From assembly GCF_051903065.1 (NCBI RefSeq), contig NZ_CP178438.1: DNA of 64,000 bases; one strand, given 5' to 3'. Position 1 is the stretch's first letter. Each line of letters opens with the position of its first letter. Shown here piece by piece: positions 54,033 to 61,487 of the stretch. This DNA comes from Escherichia coli. Its GTDB lineage: Bacteria; Pseudomonadota; Gammaproteobacteria; Enterobacterales; Enterobacteriaceae. The notes beneath the pieces were generated by a model. It did no database searches. It was given only the letters and a program-made list of their open reading frames with translations, and was not told where the DNA came from. Both the position numbers and the translations under genes were made by a program.

Positions 54033-54998
54033 ATGAGAACCGTTAAGGTATTTGAGGAAGCCTGGCCCTTACATACCCCGTTTGTGATTGCCCGGGGAAG
54101 TCGCAGTGAAGCGCGCGTGGTGGTGGTTGAACTGGAAGAAGAGGGTATTAAAGGCACCGGCGAATGCACGCCGTATCCGCGTTATGGAGAAAGTGATGCC
54201 TCGGTAATGGCGCAAATTATGAGCGTCGTACCGCAATTAGAGAAAGGGCTGACACGGGAGGAGTTGCAAAAAATTCTCCCTGCCGGCGCAGCACGTAATG
54301 CGCTGGATTGTGCATTGTGGGATCTGGCGGCGCGAAAACAGCAGCAATCGCTGGCTGATTTGATCGGCATAACGCTTCCCGAGACAGTCACCACTGCACA
54401 GACGGTAGTCATCGGTACGCCTGATCAGATGGCCAATAGCGCATCAACACTCTGGCAGGCCGGCGCGAAATTATTGAAAGTGAAGCTGGATAACCATCTT
54501 ATCAGTGAGCGGATGGTGGCAATTCGCACAGCTGTGCCCGATGCCACGCTGATCGTTGATGCAAATGAATCATGGCGTGCAGAAGGGTTGGCGGCACGTT
54601 GCCAGCTATTGGCGGATTTAGGCGTTGCTATGCTTGAACAACCGCTTCCTGCGCAGGACGATGCGGCACTGGAGAATTTTATTCATCCGTTACCGATTTG
54701 TGCTGATGAAAGTTGTCATACTCGTAGCAATCTGAAGGCGCTGAAAGGGCGCTATGAGATGGTTAACATTAAGCTCGATAAAACCGGGGGTCTGACGGAA
54801 GCGCTGGCGCTGGCGACTGAAGCACGTGCACAAGGTTTTCGTCTGATGCTGGGCTGCATGTTGTGTACCTCTCGTGCCATTAGCGCCGCTTTACCGCTGG
54901 TGCCGCAGGTCAGTTTCGCCGATCTTGACGGACCGACCTGGCTGGCGGTAGATGTGGAACCGGCGCTTCAGTTCACGACGGGCGAATTGCATCTTTAG
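54033..54998 (+). CDS. ycjG: L-Ala-D/L-Glu epimerase (enolase superfamily)
   Basis: ORF 53991..54998; start set at MRTVKVFEEAWPL... Confidence 0.85.
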   Translation: MRTVKVFEEAWPLHTPFVIARGSRSEARVVVVELEEEGIKGTGECTPYPRYGESDASVMAQIMSVVPQLEKGLTREELQKILPAGAARNALDCALWDLAARKQQQSLADLIGITLPETVTTAQTVVIGTPDQMANSASTLWQAGAKLLKVKLDNHLISERMVAIRTAVPDATLIVDANESWRAEGLAARCQLLADLGVAMLEQPLPAQDDAALENFIHPLPICADESCHTRSNLKALKGRYEMVNIKLDKTGGLTEALALATEARAQGFRLMLGCMLCTSRAISAALPLVPQVSFADLDGPTWLAVDVEPALQFTTGELHL

Positions 54999-55701
54999 GA
55001 TGCCAGCGCAGCAAGTTTGCCATCGCAAAGAGATATTTTTCGCTGGCTTCGTCGGAGGAGATGGGCGGAAACTCTGCGGTGATGCAATGCAAGTTCAGAT
55101 CTGCACACCAACTGCCGAAAGAGCCAGGCGTTTCATAACCGACGCTGGTTACCAGAGGCAATTCAAACGCCTGAGCCAGCCATTCGCCTAATTCGCTGTG
55201 TCTGGGATCTTCAATACAGGCCAGTGGATCGTGGAATGAGACCACCCAGGCAGGTTGAATGCGGTGTATAAGCTGGCACAGCGCCTGGGTTTCAGGTTCG
55301 GAGCCAGGTTTGTCACCAGTCAGTAATACGACATCACGTTCTTCAGCGGCGCTGTTCCAGCGATAAACCGTTTCACCTTCCTTCCAGTTTGCCGCCGGAA
55401 AGTTTCTGTTTAAATCCACACCATTAGCATTGGCCCGTAACCCCAGCTGGCAGCCGTCAGGATTCACACACAGCACCACATGATGGCGGCGCAAAGAAGG
55501 TGTCAAAGTCCGCAGAGCACAGGAGAGCGTGACGACCGAAGAGTTTTCATCACCGTGAGTGCCAGCCAGAATCAAACCACTTTCGCGACTGGCTGCAGGG
55601 GCCGGAAACCAGATTAACGGCGCGCCCAATAATGAACGTCCGTAATGTTCTGTTCCGGGCGGAAATGCGCCGCGTTCGGCGCGTGGGCGGGTTACGGTCA
55701 T
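54973..55701 (-). CDS. mpaA: Murein tripeptide amidase (gamma-D-Glu-Dap amidase, M14-like)
   Basis: ORF 54973..55761; start set at MTVTRPRAERG... (242 aa); overlaps the 3' end of ycjG on the opposite strand. Confidence 0.85.
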   Translation of the reverse strand: MTVTRPRAERGAFPPGTEHYGRSLLGAPLIWFPAPAASRESGLILAGTHGDENSSVVTLSCALRTLTPSLRRHHVVLCVNPDGCQLGLRANANGVDLNRNFPAANWKEGETVYRWNSAAEERDVVLLTGDKPGSEPETQALCQLIHRIQPAWVVSFHDPLACIEDPRHSELGEWLAQAFELPLVTSVGYETPGSFGSWCADLNLHCITAEFPPISSDEASEKYLFAMANLLRWHPKDAIRPS

Positions 55702-55991
55702 GATCGTCTCTGGTTCAGGAAGTATTACAGGCAGTGTTGTGCAAATTTTGCGGATTATCAAATCCTTTTCTTCAACGCTATGTCATCGATCTTGTATCAC
55801 TTTTTTGCCGGAAGTTGTTTGTATTTTTATTGATGTGCAGATATTAGAATTGTCGTAATGTTATATACATGGCGTATTTTATTCTTACTGGTTCTACACA
55901 TGTTAATCGCATCTGATTGATCAGTTCACCTTAATAAGTTTAATAAATCGTACTGCACATAGTACAGTACGATGGTGGCTATATAATTGAT

Positions 55992-56642
55992 TTACATGAA
56001 GAATGGCTTATCGCCATCAGTCCCGGGTTGATTGATGCCTATATTCTCACCAATGTGTTTCTCAGGTTTATCGATGATATCTGTAATTAATGCTGCGACA
56101 CTCTTACGTGATACGATCGTACCTTTGAATGGTTCATTGCGTGAGGTAAGCTCATAATCAATAATATCTTCATCCGTCAGCCAGGCAGGGCGAAGAATTG
56201 TATAATCCAGTCCAGAAGCCTCAATTGCATCCGCAGCCCTGCGGAATGGTTTTAGGGGCTCACCAATAACTGCATTATTCCATTCGCCAAATTTTCCTGG
56301 AACTTCATCATAAATGCCGAGGGAAAGAACAAAGATCAGACGTTTAACATCACAGGCTTTCATCGCAGCGATCACTGAATTTGCCTGAATATCTAAATCT
56401 TCCCCCGTAAGGTTGGCATACACAATATCCTGTCCCTGCATGGCCTGCTTCAGTGCTGCATGATTCAGTACATCCCCCATAATAATCTGGCTATTAGTTG
56501 GATAGGGTTTGTGTATTTTTGCTGGCTGACGAGCAAATAAAGTTTGTTTAATGGTTTGTTTATCTGCCAGTTGATTAATCACATGGCGGGCTATCTGACC
56601 GCCAGCACCAAGAATGAGTACTTTTTTCATAATATTTCTCAT
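55992..56642 (-). CDS. ymjC: NAD(P)-binding (NmrA/SDR-like) protein, apparently intact ymjC homolog
   Basis: 216-aa ORF with Rossmann motif ILGAGGQIARH. Confidence 0.7.
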   Translation of the reverse strand: MRNIMKKVLILGAGGQIARHVINQLADKQTIKQTLFARQPAKIHKPYPTNSQIIMGDVLNHAALKQAMQGQDIVYANLTGEDLDIQANSVIAAMKACDVKRLIFVLSLGIYDEVPGKFGEWNNAVIGEPLKPFRRAADAIEASGLDYTILRPAWLTDEDIIDYELTSRNEPFKGTIVSRKSVAALITDIIDKPEKHIGENIGINQPGTDGDKPFFM

Positions 56643-56647
56643 GAAAC

Positions 56648-57580
56648 TTATCCCAGATGGGTGTTGAAAAAAGGAATAACTTTTTCCAGCGCCTCCTGAA
56701 CTGCTTCCGGTTTGTCATACAGTTCATAATGTGAGAAATCGGGTAATGAAACTAACTGACGATCCTGCGAAACCATCGCCCGGCCATAGACTTCCAGTCC
56801 ATCACGATAAGCACCGAAGGCACCGACTTTTTCACCAACTACTACCATCACCGGCTGAGTCAGTAACACTTCAGTAAATGCGAAGGCATCCCAGGCCAGC
56901 GTTTTCTGTGCATGTGAGAACAACATTTTTGTCGCACCTCCCGGTTGTTGCCCGCGTGGTGTTTTATAGTAGTCAGTTGCTTCATAAACATCGCGTTCGG
57001 TCAGTCCATGGGCTTTTGCTGCATCCAGGCTGGCGGGAAGTAATTCGTTGATCTGTAATTCTCCACCACGAGCCTCTTTGGTTCGTTGCGACGCCATTGC
57101 ATTCAATGCGCCAATCGGATCGTAATTGCTGAAACCTTCCCGAAAAAGACGCCCGATATTAACACCCGTAATACTCACTACAGCTTTAATTCGTTTTTCT
57201 GTCAGCGCGGCATTAATGGCATAGCCCCTCCCCCCACACACACCCAGCACGCCAATGCGTTCAGCATCAACATATGGCAGAGTTACTGCATAATCGATAA
57301 CACGGCTAATATCCTCTACGCGCTGTGTCGGATCTTCTATCCAACGAGGCTCCCCACCAGATTCTCCCTGGAAATTGGCGTCATAAGCGAGAACGACATA
57401 GCCTTTTTCAGCCAATGCCTTGCCATAGATATTGCCAGACGTCTGCTCCTTACAACTGCCAAAAGGATGGACGCTGATAATCGCCGGATACTGTTTTGAC
57501 TCATCAAAATTTGGTGGAAACTGAATATTGGCAGCAATATGCCAGGCCATATCACTATTGCGGATTTGAATATGTTTCAT
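56648..57580 (-). CDS. Alpha/beta hydrolase (dienelactone-hydrolase-like, Cys nucleophile GVCGG)
   Basis: 310-aa ORF; paralog of the adjacent upstream gene. Confidence 0.75.
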   Translation of the reverse strand: MKHIQIRNSDMAWHIAANIQFPPNFDESKQYPAIISVHPFGSCKEQTSGNIYGKALAEKGYVVLAYDANFQGESGGEPRWIEDPTQRVEDISRVIDYAVTLPYVDAERIGVLGVCGGRGYAINAALTEKRIKAVVSITGVNIGRLFREGFSNYDPIGALNAMASQRTKEARGGELQINELLPASLDAAKAHGLTERDVYEATDYYKTPRGQQPGGATKMLFSHAQKTLAWDAFAFTEVLLTQPVMVVVGEKVGAFGAYRDGLEVYGRAMVSQDRQLVSLPDFSHYELYDKPEAVQEALEKVIPFFNTHLG

Positions 57581-58512
57581 TACAGAGTTTCCTCAAAGAA
57601 CGGAGCTAATACTGAAATTGCTTCAGCCACATAGGCTTTGCCGTCATAAAGATCCATATGGTTTGCGCCTTCAACAATGTGATAGCGTTTATCCTGGCTT
57701 GATGCCCGATCGTACAGGTCGTCACTCATCCATTTGCTCCCTGCCTGGCTGCCCGCCACAATCTGCATCGGCTGAGTCAGGTACACTTCCGCCATATGGT
57801 AAGCATCATAGGTAATAATCTGGTTAAGGCTGCGCAAAGTAGCGTAACCCGGTGCTGTTGGATACTGCGCACGAGGGGTGTGGTAATACTCCCAGGCCTG
57901 ACGCAGTTCTTCGTTCGGCGCATCGGCCTCCTTCATTGGAGCCAGTGGCATAATGGCGTATTCTTCGCTGCTAATATCGCTGGTTCGGGCGTTTGAGCCA
58001 GCTTCAATGTGTGGCAGAGCATCAATAGATTTCACATTGTTTTCCCAACCATTGCGGAACATCGAACCAATATTGACCGCACTAACGGTACCGATGGCCT
58101 TGATGCGGCGATCCTGAATTGCAGCATTGGCTGTATATCCTGCACCGGCACAAATTCCCATCGCACCAATTCGGGTATTGTCGACATAAGAAAGCGTTGT
58201 CAGGTAATCAATCACGGCACTGATGTCTTCAGTACGAATGTATGGGTTTTCTAACTGACGCGGCTCGCCGCCACTTTCACCCTGATAAGATGCGTCATAA
58301 GCAATAGTGACAAATCCCTTTTCCGCCAGTTTTTCGGCATAGGTCCCGGCCGTTTGTTCTTTAACGCCCCCACCTGGGTGAGATACCACAATTGCCGGAT
58401 ATTGACGGGTTTCATCAAATTTTGGAGGAAAATAGATCACTGCAGACAAAGAGATGGTTGGATTATTGCTGTTAGTGAAGCTGACTTTATTATTCATCAT
58501 TCCGTTCCTCAT
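57580..58512 (-). CDS. ycjY: Alpha/beta hydrolase (dienelactone-hydrolase-like, GICAG), ycjY-like
   Basis: 310-aa ORF; TAATG stop/start overlap with the downstream paralog. Confidence 0.7.
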   Translation of the reverse strand: MRNGMMNNKVSFTNSNNPTISLSAVIYFPPKFDETRQYPAIVVSHPGGGVKEQTAGTYAEKLAEKGFVTIAYDASYQGESGGEPRQLENPYIRTEDISAVIDYLTTLSYVDNTRIGAMGICAGAGYTANAAIQDRRIKAIGTVSAVNIGSMFRNGWENNVKSIDALPHIEAGSNARTSDISSEEYAIMPLAPMKEADAPNEELRQAWEYYHTPRAQYPTAPGYATLRSLNQIITYDAYHMAEVYLTQPMQIVAGSQAGSKWMSDDLYDRASSQDKRYHIVEGANHMDLYDGKAYVAEAISVLAPFFEETL

Positions 58513-58570
58513 GGAGTTGTTGGTTCGTTTTAACGGTTGGTGATATCACTATAGATATTGATCATTAAGT

Positions 58571-58615
58571 TGATTAGACCCAAAATCATGATTAGACCTA
58601 TCATTTAAATGATTA
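58571..58615. promoter_or_regulatory. pgrR divergent control region: direct repeat TGATTAGACC x2 plus palindrome ATCATTTAAATGAT (T-N11-A type)
   Basis: Read directly; sits between divergent hydrolase operon and pgrR. Confidence 0.5.
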
Positions 58616-58637
58616 ATAGATTGTATGGAGATACTGA

Positions 58638-59537
58638 ATGAAGCGTGAAGAGATCGCTGATCTGATGGCGTTTGTCGTCGTTGCAGAGGAGCGTAGCTTC
58701 ACTCGAGCAGCAGCCCGCCTGAGCATGGCGCAGTCAGCTTTAAGCCAGATAGTGCGCCGTATAGAAGAACGATTGGGATTGCGGCTTCTGACGCGAACTA
58801 CGCGCAGCGTTGTACCAACTGAAGCGGGCGAGCATCTTTTGTCTGTTCTTGGCCCTATGTTGCATGACATAGATTCTGCCCTGACATCCCTGAGCGATCT
58901 GCAGAACCGCCCATCCGGGACAATACGTATTACTACTGTAGAACATGCAGCAAAAACGATATTGTTACCAGCCATGCGCACATTCCTGAGATCGCATCCT
59001 GAAATTGATATTCAGCTCACCATTGATTATGGTTTGACCGATGTCGTTTCTGAACGTTTTGATGCAGGCGTCCGTCTGGGTGGGGAGATGGATAAAGATA
59101 TGATCGCCATTCGAATCGGGCCAGATATACCAATGGCTATTGTTGGCTCACCGGATTATTTTTCTCGCCGAAGTGTTCCAACGTCAGTGTCACAATTAAT
59201 AGATCATCAGGCAATTAATTTGTATCTTCCCACATCGGGTACAGCAAATCGCTGGAGATTAATACGCGGTGGACGTGAAGTTCGTGTTCGCATGGAAGGT
59301 CAGCTTTTACTGAATACGATAGACCTGATCATTGATGCTGCAATTGATGGGCATGGATTGGCGTATCTACCTTATGATCAGGTTGAGCGGGCTATTAAAG
59401 AAAAAAAACTGATACGTGTTTTGGATAAATTCACACCAGATTTACCCGGTTATCACCTGTACTATCCACACCGTCGACATGCTGGCTCGGCATTCTCATT
59501 ATTTATAGATAGGCTGAAGTATAAAGGTGCTGTTTAG
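58638..59537 (+). CDS. pgrR: LysR-family transcriptional regulator
   Basis: 299-aa ORF with N-terminal HTH (FTRAAARLSMAQSALSQ); recognised as PgrR/YcjZ. Confidence 0.85.
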   Translation: MKREEIADLMAFVVVAEERSFTRAAARLSMAQSALSQIVRRIEERLGLRLLTRTTRSVVPTEAGEHLLSVLGPMLHDIDSALTSLSDLQNRPSGTIRITTVEHAAKTILLPAMRTFLRSHPEIDIQLTIDYGLTDVVSERFDAGVRLGGEMDKDMIAIRIGPDIPMAIVGSPDYFSRRSVPTSVSQLIDHQAINLYLPTSGTANRWRLIRGGREVRVRMEGQLLLNTIDLIIDAAIDGHGLAYLPYDQVERAIKEKKLIRVLDKFTPDLPGYHLYYPHRRHAGSAFSLFIDRLKYKGAV

Positions 59538-59873
59538 CACTACTTGCTGATACATTAATTTAATTCTTCTCTTAACGTATTCTCAGTTCCTTTCAACGTT
59601 TTGGTTATTTTTTATTCTTCGTACAATGGCGACAGATGCTGATTATGATACCGAAAACTGGTTTGAACGTGTGAAGCCCGAACGTAGTGTTCGGTGTTCT
59701 ATGTGCTTTGCCGCATTTTGGCGTCTATTATTTACACTAAATATGATTTAATATATTGATACATAAAACATTTTATGCTTCCTGTGTCACTTTTTTGATG
59801 GAAGTTGTTTGCATTTCTTTAAGGCGAAACAAATAATTACGCATCAATTTTAATGTCGGTTAGAGGGAAACTT

Positions 59874-61487
59874 ATGAAGCACTCTGTTTCAGTCACGTGT
59901 TGTGCGCTGTTGGTCAGCAGCATTTCTCTTTCGTATGCTGCAGAAGTTCCGAGCGGCACAGTACTGGCAGAGAAGCAGGAGCTGGTGCGCCACATTAAAG
60001 ATGAGCCTGCGTCGCTGGATCCCGCTAAAGCCGTGGGCCTGCCAGAGATTCAGGTCATTCGCGATCTTTTTGAAGGACTGGTGAATCAGAACGAGAAAGG
60101 GGAGATTGTCCCCGGCGTTGCGACTCAGTGGAAAAGTAATGACAACCGTATCTGGACTTTTACCCTGCGCGATAACGCAAAATGGGCGGATGGCACACCG
60201 GTAACGGCGCAAGATTTTGTCTACAGCTGGCAGCGTCTGGTGGACCCGAAAACGCTATCGCCATTTGCATGGTTTGCCGCGCTGGCGGGAATCAACAACG
60301 CACAGGCGATTATTGATGGTAAAGCTACGCCTGACCAGCTTGGCGTCACCGCAGTTGATGCCCATACTTTGAAAATTCAGCTTGATAAACCGTTGCCGTG
60401 GTTTGTGAATTTAACCGCTAACTTTGCCTTCTTCCCGGTGCAAAAAGCCAACGTAGAAAGCGGTAAAGAGTGGACGAAACCCGGAAATCTGATCGGCAAT
60501 GGCGCTTATGTTCTTAAAGAGCGCGTAGTCAATGAAAAACTGGTCGTGGTACCGAATACCCATTATTGGGATAACGCCAAAACGGTACTGCAAAAAGTGA
60601 CCTTCCTGCCAATTAATCAGGAATCCGCAGCCACTAAGCGTTACCTCGCGGGGGATATTGATATCACCGAATCCTTCCCGAAAAATATGTATCAGAAGCT
60701 GTTGAAGGATATTCCGGGGCAGGTTTATACGCCGCCGCAGCTCGGGACCTATTATTATGCGTTTAACACGCAAAAAGGGCCGACGGCAGATCAGCGCGTT
60801 CGTCTGGCATTAAGTATGACGATAGATCGCCGCCTGATGACCGAAAAAGTATTAGGGACGGGCGAAAAGCCAGCGTGGCATTTTACACCAGATGTTACCG
60901 CCGGATTTACGCCGGAACCTTCGCCGTTTGAACAAATGAGTCAGGAAGAACTGAATGCGCAGGCAAAAACTTTGTTGAGCGCAGCTGGTTATGGTCCGCA
61001 AAAACCGCTGAAGCTGACGCTTTTGTATAACACTTCAGAAAACCATCAAAAAATTGCGATTGCTGTAGCATCGATGTGGAAAAAGAACCTTGGCGTAGAT
61101 GTTAAATTGCAAAATCAGGAATGGAAAACCTATATCGATAGCCGTAACACCGGCAATTTTGATGTTATCCGCGCCTCATGGGTGGGGGATTATAATGAAC
61201 CCTCCACTTTCCTGACATTATTAACGTCAACGCATTCAGGAAATATTTCACGCTTTAACAATCCGGCATACGACAAAGTTCTGGCCCAGGCATCGACGGA
61301 AAATACCGTTAAAGCGCGTAATGCCGATTACAACGCGGCAGAAAAAATCCTCATGGAGCAAGCACCGATTGCACCAATTTATCAATATACCAATGGACGA
61401 TTAATCAAGCCGTGGCTGAAAGGTTATCCCATTAATAACCCGGAAGATGTGGCGTACAGTCGGACTATGTATATTGTGAAGCATTGA
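59874..61487 (+). CDS. mppA: Periplasmic murein tripeptide-binding protein
   Basis: ORF 59853..61487; start set at MKHSVSVTCCALL... (537 aa) after an agagggaaa ribosome-binding site. Confidence 0.9.
   Translation: MKHSVSVTCCALLVSSISLSYAAEVPSGTVLAEKQELVRHIKDEPASLDPAKAVGLPEIQVIRDLFEGLVNQNEKGEIVPGVATQWKSNDNRIWTFTLRDNAKWADGTPVTAQDFVYSWQRLVDPKTLSPFAWFAALAGINNAQAIIDGKATPDQLGVTAVDAHTLKIQLDKPLPWFVNLTANFAFFPVQKANVESGKEWTKPGNLIGNGAYVLKERVVNEKLVVVPNTHYWDNAKTVLQKVTFLPINQESAATKRYLAGDIDITESFPKNMYQKLLKDIPGQVYTPPQLGTYYYAFNTQKGPTADQRVRLALSMTIDRRLMTEKVLGTGEKPAWHFTPDVTAGFTPEPSPFEQMSQEELNAQAKTLLSAAGYGPQKPLKLTLLYNTSENHQKIAIAVASMWKKNLGVDVKLQNQEWKTYIDSRNTGNFDVIRASWVGDYNEPSTFLTLLTSTHSGNISRFNNPAYDKVLAQASTENTVKARNADYNAAEKILMEQAPIAPIYQYTNGRLIKPWLKGYPINNPEDVAYSRTMYIVKH

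Follow-up and report, generated by a model that had tools for sequence, protein, structure and literature searches.

A 37-bp direct repeat upstream of mpaA and mppA in Escherichia coli, very probably produced by insertion of a foreign pgrR cassette

The target-site duplications left by transposons and insertion sequences usually measure 2 to 14 bp, and genomic islands are often flanked by direct repeats of tens of base pairs. Similar sequences upstream of two genes may also be read as sites for a common regulator and, for the LysR-type regulator PgrR, genomic SELEX placed the local binding site at ycjY/ycjZ (PMC5934670). The locus described here, in a 64-kb stretch of E. coli DNA that was analysed as a whole (the window), invites comparison with both kinds of system: the genes mpaA and mppA, which act in murein-peptide recycling, carry similar sequences upstream of them, and pgrR is situated between the two. 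In the 5 kb that were compared, the window shows 100% identity to E. coli strain 23CRST027.

The repeat and the empty site

The preliminary description of the window had reported a 32-bp motif at 55797-55828 and again at 59787-59818, both on the + strand, and had proposed a shared cis-regulatory element, perhaps a site for PgrR. The two copies are present at these positions and in this orientation and are identical at 28 of 32 nucleotides; the coordinates hold, although the sequences written out with them were only 30 nt long. Chance was ruled out as the source of the similarity, as a mismatch-tolerant pattern search gave a match in 0 of 100 dinucleotide-preserving shuffles, and the same kind of search found exactly two copies in the window. 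A repeat-family search extended the similarity 7 nt leftward, to 55790-55826 versus 59780-59816, with 32/37 positions identical, and the next 10 nt to the left agree at 5/10, which is not significant. Copy 1 lies 89 to 127 nt upstream of the mpaA ATG (55701, minus strand), and 55 nt separate the end of copy 2 from the mppA ATG (59874). Rfam covariance models gave no match at either copy, their sole hit being sub-threshold and inside pgrR. The features of the locus are the following, in window coordinates:

54973-55701, minus strand: mpaA, left flanking core gene (annotation, gene mapping)
55733-55761, minus strand: mpaA promoter, TTGATA-17-AACACT; K-12 start site 1390623 corresponds to window 55726
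55790-55826, plus strand: repeat copy 1 (left direct repeat); keeps the ancestral GCCGG, right side joined to foreign DNA
55827-59779, no strand: inserted DNA, 3953 bp; missing from the mpaA-mppA spacer of 75 species and of E. coli ST648
55947-55973, minus strand: 12-bp hairpin followed by UUUAUU, terminator-like, directly after the SDR stop codon
55992-56630, minus strand: SDR gene, a reductase (annotation)
56648-57580, minus strand: alpha/beta hydrolase gene (annotation)
57580-58500, minus strand: ycjY, a hydrolase gene (annotation)
58638-59537, plus strand: pgrR (annotation)
59635-59709, plus strand: queH pseudogene fragment (annotation)
59765, plus strand: distal mppA start site (K-12 1393117), within the insert and 15 nt to the left of copy 2
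59780-59816, plus strand: repeat copy 2 (right direct repeat); its right end is the -35 hexamer of the proximal mppA promoter
59808-59837, plus strand: proximal mppA promoter, TTTGCA-18-AATAAT; K-12 start site 1393195 (0-based) corresponds to window 59843
59874-61487, plus strand: mppA, right flanking core gene (annotation, gene mapping)

We took the mpaA locus from 80 Enterobacteriaceae species representatives and mapped the neighbouring genes by tblastn. In 75 of the 80, mppA and mpaA are adjacent and divergent, with a spacer mostly of 182-185 nt; the genera include Citrobacter, Enterobacter, Klebsiella, Kluyvera, Leclercia, Lelliottia, Pluralibacter and others, and the same layout occurs in E. 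albertii, E. whittamii and three further Escherichia lineages. The intergenic region of these cassette-free relatives holds a single copy of the motif. Among the fetched representatives, ycjY and pgrR lie between mpaA and mppA only in Escherichia sp. E1V33, and they do so as well in E. coli K-12 and in the window strain. Conservation in orthologous upstream regions had been set beforehand as one of the tests of the shared element, and the motif is conserved there.

The anatomy of the two copies is settled by comparison with E. coli ST648, in which mpaA and mppA are adjacent, divergent and annotated 182 nt apart. In an ungapped comparison, positions 1-125 of the ST648 spacer match window 55702-55826 at 98.4% identity, which drops to about 30% beyond 55826, and positions 89-182 match window 59780-59873 at 95.7%, which falls to about 23% left of about 59770 (spacer position ~79). 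The 125 nt of the left junction and the 94 nt of the right one, with an overlap of 37 nt that corresponds to the repeat, rebuild the 182-nt spacer. Because the two junctions overlap by 37 nt on the empty site, the copies, which immediately bracket 55827-59779 in direct orientation, are its duplicated borders, and a one-copy site equal to the sum of the junctions is found in the 75 species and in ST648. We consider it very probable that the repeat was made when 3953 bp of foreign DNA entered the ancestral 182-bp divergent control region of mpaA and mppA. Each copy would then descend from the central piece of this region, and the foreign DNA would consist of a mobile pgrR/ycjY/hydrolase/SDR module together with a queH fragment. 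The copies are alike because the target was duplicated at the cassette borders, so that selection for a common site is not needed, and the feature is of an ordinary kind: an insertion scar on either side of an acquired islet, at a locus that is already well studied.

Of 5426 complete E. coli genomes, 5243 have the part of the insert on the pgrR side (58638-59779), and the exact empty-site sequence occurs in at least 144 genomes. These empty E. coli sites could be ancestral or could have arisen by excision between the repeats, both of which fit the site sequence: recombination within GGAAGTTGTTTGCATTT would regenerate the ancestral sequence, so the site alone does not separate the two.

The number of differences between the copies, 5/37, is high for a recent duplication and thus counts against such an origin, but it is offset by changes that are confined to E. 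coli or to one strain. The CC-to-AT change of copy 2 (GATGG, 59798-59799) was seen in each of the 11 cassette-bearing E. coli loci examined and is absent from every empty site and from E1V33, in which copy 2 keeps the ancestral GCCGG, and a C-to-T change of copy 1 is specific to the window strain. The left-edge changes of copy 2 are either older or reflect a fuzzy edge of the duplication. Across the same 11 loci no variation occurs in the core of copy 2, whereas two strains (the window strain and L091) have single-base variants in copy 1, a pattern that in this small sample is consistent with constraint on copy 2 only.

The preliminary description had also pointed to a possible 17-codon ORF across copy 1 and to a similar peptide encoded by copy 2. 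The ORF (55780-55833) reads as described and starts with an ATG in E. coli, but translation of a 17-residue peptide from it is barely conceivable. Neither start codon nor frame is conserved, an ATG occupying the aligned column in 5/75 orthologous spacers, all from Escherichia; the 3' end of the ORF falls in unrelated foreign DNA, and the K-12 SMRT-Cappable-seq operon table (PMC6131387) has no start site upstream on its strand. The peptide of copy 2 is a by-product of the duplication.

A mobile module and its arrival in the spacer

The foreign character of the bracketed DNA is apparent from its distribution on plasmids, ICE and islands of other genera and from its divergence in E1V33. Homologues of PgrR that are 87-89% identical occur in Klebsiella, Raoultella, Kluyvera, Citrobacter, Enterobacter, Salmonella, Pantoea and Serratia, one of them annotated on a plasmid. 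The set formed by pgrR, two hydrolases and the SDR was found in six other contexts (L083-L088), at quite different sites, some of which add a short-chain dehydrogenase and an OYE-type flavin reductase. The settings comprise a chromosome, an ICE with TraG and TraC genes, the neighbourhood of an arsenic-resistance operon and plasmid-like contigs. The DNA identity is about 79% for the module on Klebsiella plasmids, and likewise for the ICE and the arsenic-resistance island, and about 69% for plasmids of Agrobacterium, Rhizobium and Kozakia (plasmid hits H57-H66). In E1V33 (L005), the cassette is about 2% diverged from that of K-12 and the flanking genes 10-15%; as it is far less diverged than its flanks, the cassette also moved between Escherichia lineages. 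The E1V33 cassette carries the same two deletions as K-12 (see below), which points to a recent transfer of a K-12-type allele between Escherichia lineages. Away from E. coli, the module shows no association with peptidoglycan genes. The analysis suggests that the native role of PgrR is the control of its own mobile module.

Several structural forms of the cassette exist, four alleles and an IS1 replacement having been seen. A deleted allele, with gaps at window 55828-56491 and 56631-57522 (K-12 junctions in L002: 5725/5726 and 5863/5877), occurs in K-12 and in many further E. coli. The first deletion starts a few nucleotides from the right end of copy 1, shows the microhomology TTTTATT and takes away the 3' part of the SDR gene and the hairpin at 55947-55973; the second takes most of the middle hydrolase gene, and ymjC and ymjD remain. 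A 96-nt stretch containing this hairpin has a folding energy of -22.8 kcal/mol (z = -3.7), and one of the other module contexts (L083) has a hairpin of different sequence at the equivalent place. It may be only in this deleted allele that mpaA forms part of the published ycjY-ymjD-ymjC-mpaA operon and is under PgrR control. In E. coli NH-21 (L098, 3339-4447), IS1 replaces the cassette, and the last ~150 nt of the insert are left with copy 2.

DNA homology between this insert and the other copies of the module runs from 55921 or 55983 on the left through 59536 on the right and thus stops 94 nt (left) and about 242-243 nt (right) inside the repeats. Since it always ends inside them, the outer 94 nt and 242 nt are specific to the E. 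coli insert. A plasmid search gave no match extending into either of these edges. When the translated queH fragment was searched against proteins, all matches were fragments from E. coli or Shigella, none of them a donor of the insert edge, and a tblastn search of the adh_short gene neighbouring the module in L083 against the left edge gave nothing significant. The insert ends differ from the module ends seen elsewhere, and both resemble arbitrary breakpoints, the right one being an internal queH fragment.

These boundaries bear on a reading in which the two copies are attL and attR sites and the element once had a site-specific recombinase, now lost, that integrated it. The length of the repeat, the location of the module in an ICE and on plasmids elsewhere, and the repeated insertions into the spacer in other lineages would all agree with it, but we consider it very unlikely. 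The annotated genes in or beside 55827-59779 include no integrase, recombinase or transposase, the insert carrying only the SDR, two hydrolases, pgrR and the queH fragment. The motif was not found beside the module in any of its six other contexts, with up to 8/29 mismatches allowed, so that the module does not carry the repeat elsewhere as an attP would be carried. The module homology ends well inside the repeats, a piece from the interior of a gene forms the insert's right edge, and the inserts in this spacer in Citrobacter sp. 18056 and Salmonella lack a comparable duplication. A target-site duplication by a transposon agrees no better with the locus: 37 bp is far above the usual length, no pair of inverted repeats joining the ends of the insert was found, and the insert encodes no transposase. 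The likeliest route to the 37-bp duplication would be an irregular (illegitimate) insertion that copied its target.

Insertions have entered the mpaA-mppA spacer repeatedly. In Salmonella enterica subsp. arizonae and diarizonae (L023, 7449-9677; L025) it contains an islet of about 3 kb that encodes a cytolethal distending toxin B subunit (NCBIfam NF011787, E = 1e-113), with a left breakpoint within the motif region and the mppA-proximal promoter blocks replaced. In Citrobacter sp. 18056 (L056, 811-10000), a 9-kb insert with a single ORF of 2866 residues has its breakpoints at spacer positions of about 73 and about 92, and the motif is not duplicated. A 12-nt sequence, CTTTTTTGATGG, identical to the E. 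coli variant of copy 2, lies about 130 nt upstream of mppA in the two Salmonella subspecies (L023, L025); with unrelated flanks that do not align, this identity is possibly due to chance.

That the shared motif is instead a PgrR operator co-regulating mpaA and mppA, the explanation suggested at the outset, is highly improbable. The position of pgrR between the copies speaks for it, as does the assignment of mpaA to the PgrR regulon in the K-12 literature, and the E. coli-specific change from GCCGG to GATGG brings copy 2 slightly nearer to ATCATTTAAATGAT, a perfect palindrome at 58600-58613 between ycjY and pgrR. Klebsiella-type modules have kept this palindrome, a candidate PgrR box. The change raises the likeness of copy 2 from 7 to 9/14, the best score of the motif and still at chance level, and copy 1 reaches 10/14 against an unrelated stretch, so that the palindrome is matched no better than unrelated parts. 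Across genomes the motif and pgrR do not travel together: the motif is kept in about 75 species without pgrR at the locus, and the module moves without the motif. The genomic SELEX study (PMC5934670) reported ycjY/ycjZ as the local site and none at mppA or upstream of mpaA. The similarity of the copies is fully accounted for by the duplication.

Promoters of mpaA and mppA and the part played by each copy

Three start sites at this locus are listed in the SMRT-Cappable-seq operon table of K-12 (PMC6131387, Supplementary Data 2). They were transferred to window coordinates by alignment offset. The forward-strand positions in the table are 0-based: thrL is given there as 147, and its annotated start is 148. 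The Cappable-seq supplement (PMC4782308) has no entries for the mpaA-mppA region.

The mpaA promoter is single-copy and lies immediately left of copy 1, and both its hexamers fall within the most conserved blocks of the cross-genus alignment, in which CAGTGTTGTGCAAAA and AATCAAAT are the conserved blocks close to mpaA. The proximal mppA promoter, also found by a consensus scan, has its hexamers 18 nt apart and its mapped start site at 59843, and its -35 hexamer (59808-59813) is the right end of copy 2, which spans -63 to -27 of this promoter. TTTGCAT and, to the right of the motif, GAAACAAATAATTAC are conserved across genera; the conserved blocks within the motif are ATCA..TTT, AAG and TTTGCATTT, and mean conservation is 0.74 for the motif versus 0.67 and 0.69 for its flanks. 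Relative to the mpaA start site, copy 1 occupies -64 to -100; it is on the opposite strand, faces the cassette and has no promoter-like partner: the matching -10 block was lost and foreign sequence follows.

From the K-12 start sites and this conservation we infer that the proximal mppA promoter still makes use of copy 2 and that copy 1 is a relic. The duplicated piece would carry the -35 hexamer and the upstream zone of this promoter from -63 to -36. As the hexamer of copy 1 has no partner, the motif is a promoter fragment rather than a stand-alone regulatory element. The proposal of shared cis-regulation was thus sound in placing the motif in regulatory DNA, copy 2 being in the mppA promoter, but the likeness of the copies is due to duplication.

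The distal mppA start site (59765) has TATATT 8-13 nt upstream, and the insertion seems to have brought mppA an additional promoter. Transcription from this site would give a 109-nt mppA leader that contains copy 2 as RNA. For CRP, a site reported by ChIP-seq in ETEC for ycjZ/mppA, CGTGAACCGGGTCACA, has no match within 3 mismatches near either copy.

A further reading, compatible with the duplication, is that the 37-mer is a conserved site for some other regulator of the ancestral divergent promoters and that the duplication left both genes supplied with it. It is tentative, and we hold it to be rather unlikely. The conservation across genera of ATCA..TTT, AAG and TTTGCATTT fits it, and the positions of the copies, -63 to -27 of the proximal mppA promoter and -64 to -100 of mpaA, are those at which activators act; mppA and mpaA are also missing from the text of the paper on constitutive RpoD promoters, which may hint at a need for an activator. 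Against it, TTTGCA is already explained as a -35 hexamer, the T-run is compatible with an UP-like element, the motif is only slightly more conserved than its flanks, and the consensus of no known factor was recognised in it. The variation of copy 1 within E. coli, set against the invariant core of copy 2 in the small sample above, also counts against a site needed by both genes.

A stronger form of this reading makes the 37-mer more than a scar, either a joint regulator site through whose duplication the insertion was tolerated or a means of pairing between the mppA and mpaA mRNAs, and we judge it unlikely. In the pairing variant, the long mppA transcript from 59765 would hold copy 2, and read-through of the cassette toward mpaA would hold the complement of copy 1, so that two mRNAs of the murein-peptide pathway could base-pair over about 37 nt. 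The duplex between the long mppA UTR and the antisense of copy 1 has a calculated energy of -46.7 kcal/mol, compared with -34 +/- 4.6 for shuffles, but this strength arises because the copies are repeats by construction and is no evidence of function. We retain the duplication of the target at the cassette borders as the preferred explanation of the two copies.

Significance and comparison with known systems

These results illustrate that, where two genes of linked function share an upstream motif, the motif can simply be a border sequence duplicated when an insertion divided a single control region, and a historical reading of the shared motif here replaces the tempting regulatory one. In the E. 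coli lineage, two genes of peptidoglycan recycling were separated by the arrival of a mobile module made up of pgrR and its hydrolase and reductase companions. This landing site may account for much of the reported link between PgrR and mpaA in K-12, to which the later deletion of the terminator-like hairpin in the K-12-type allele may also contribute. As a by-product, the analysis provides base-level promoter assignments for mpaA and mppA.

Compared with LysR-type operators such as a PgrR box, the motif is likewise A/T-rich, has weak dyad character and lies near a LysR-family gene; it differs in having no significant similarity to ATCATTTAAATGAT, no co-occurrence with the regulator and no published binding at the copies. 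As in a divergent sigma-70 promoter region, copy 2 has TTTGCA at -35 to -30, whereas the hexamer of copy 1, present in most strains, has neither a -10 partner nor a gene ahead of it. Copy 2 also resembles UP-like upstream elements in its T-run at about -53 to -48, the T-run and the hexamer both being conserved across genera. With the target-site duplications of transposons and IS elements the locus shares a stretch of target copied on both sides of the insert, but it departs from them in the 37-bp length and in having no transposase or terminal inverted repeats. Finally, the locus has much in common with the repeat-flanked islets found at core-gene hotspots: same-strand copies bracket foreign DNA, a one-copy empty site exists in relatives and in some strains of the same species, the cargo occurs on plasmids and ICEs of other genera, and other inserts have entered the same spacer. 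It differs from these islets in having no integrase, tRNA target or defined element ends, and its repeat is imperfect (32/37) and comes from the promoter region of the recipient.
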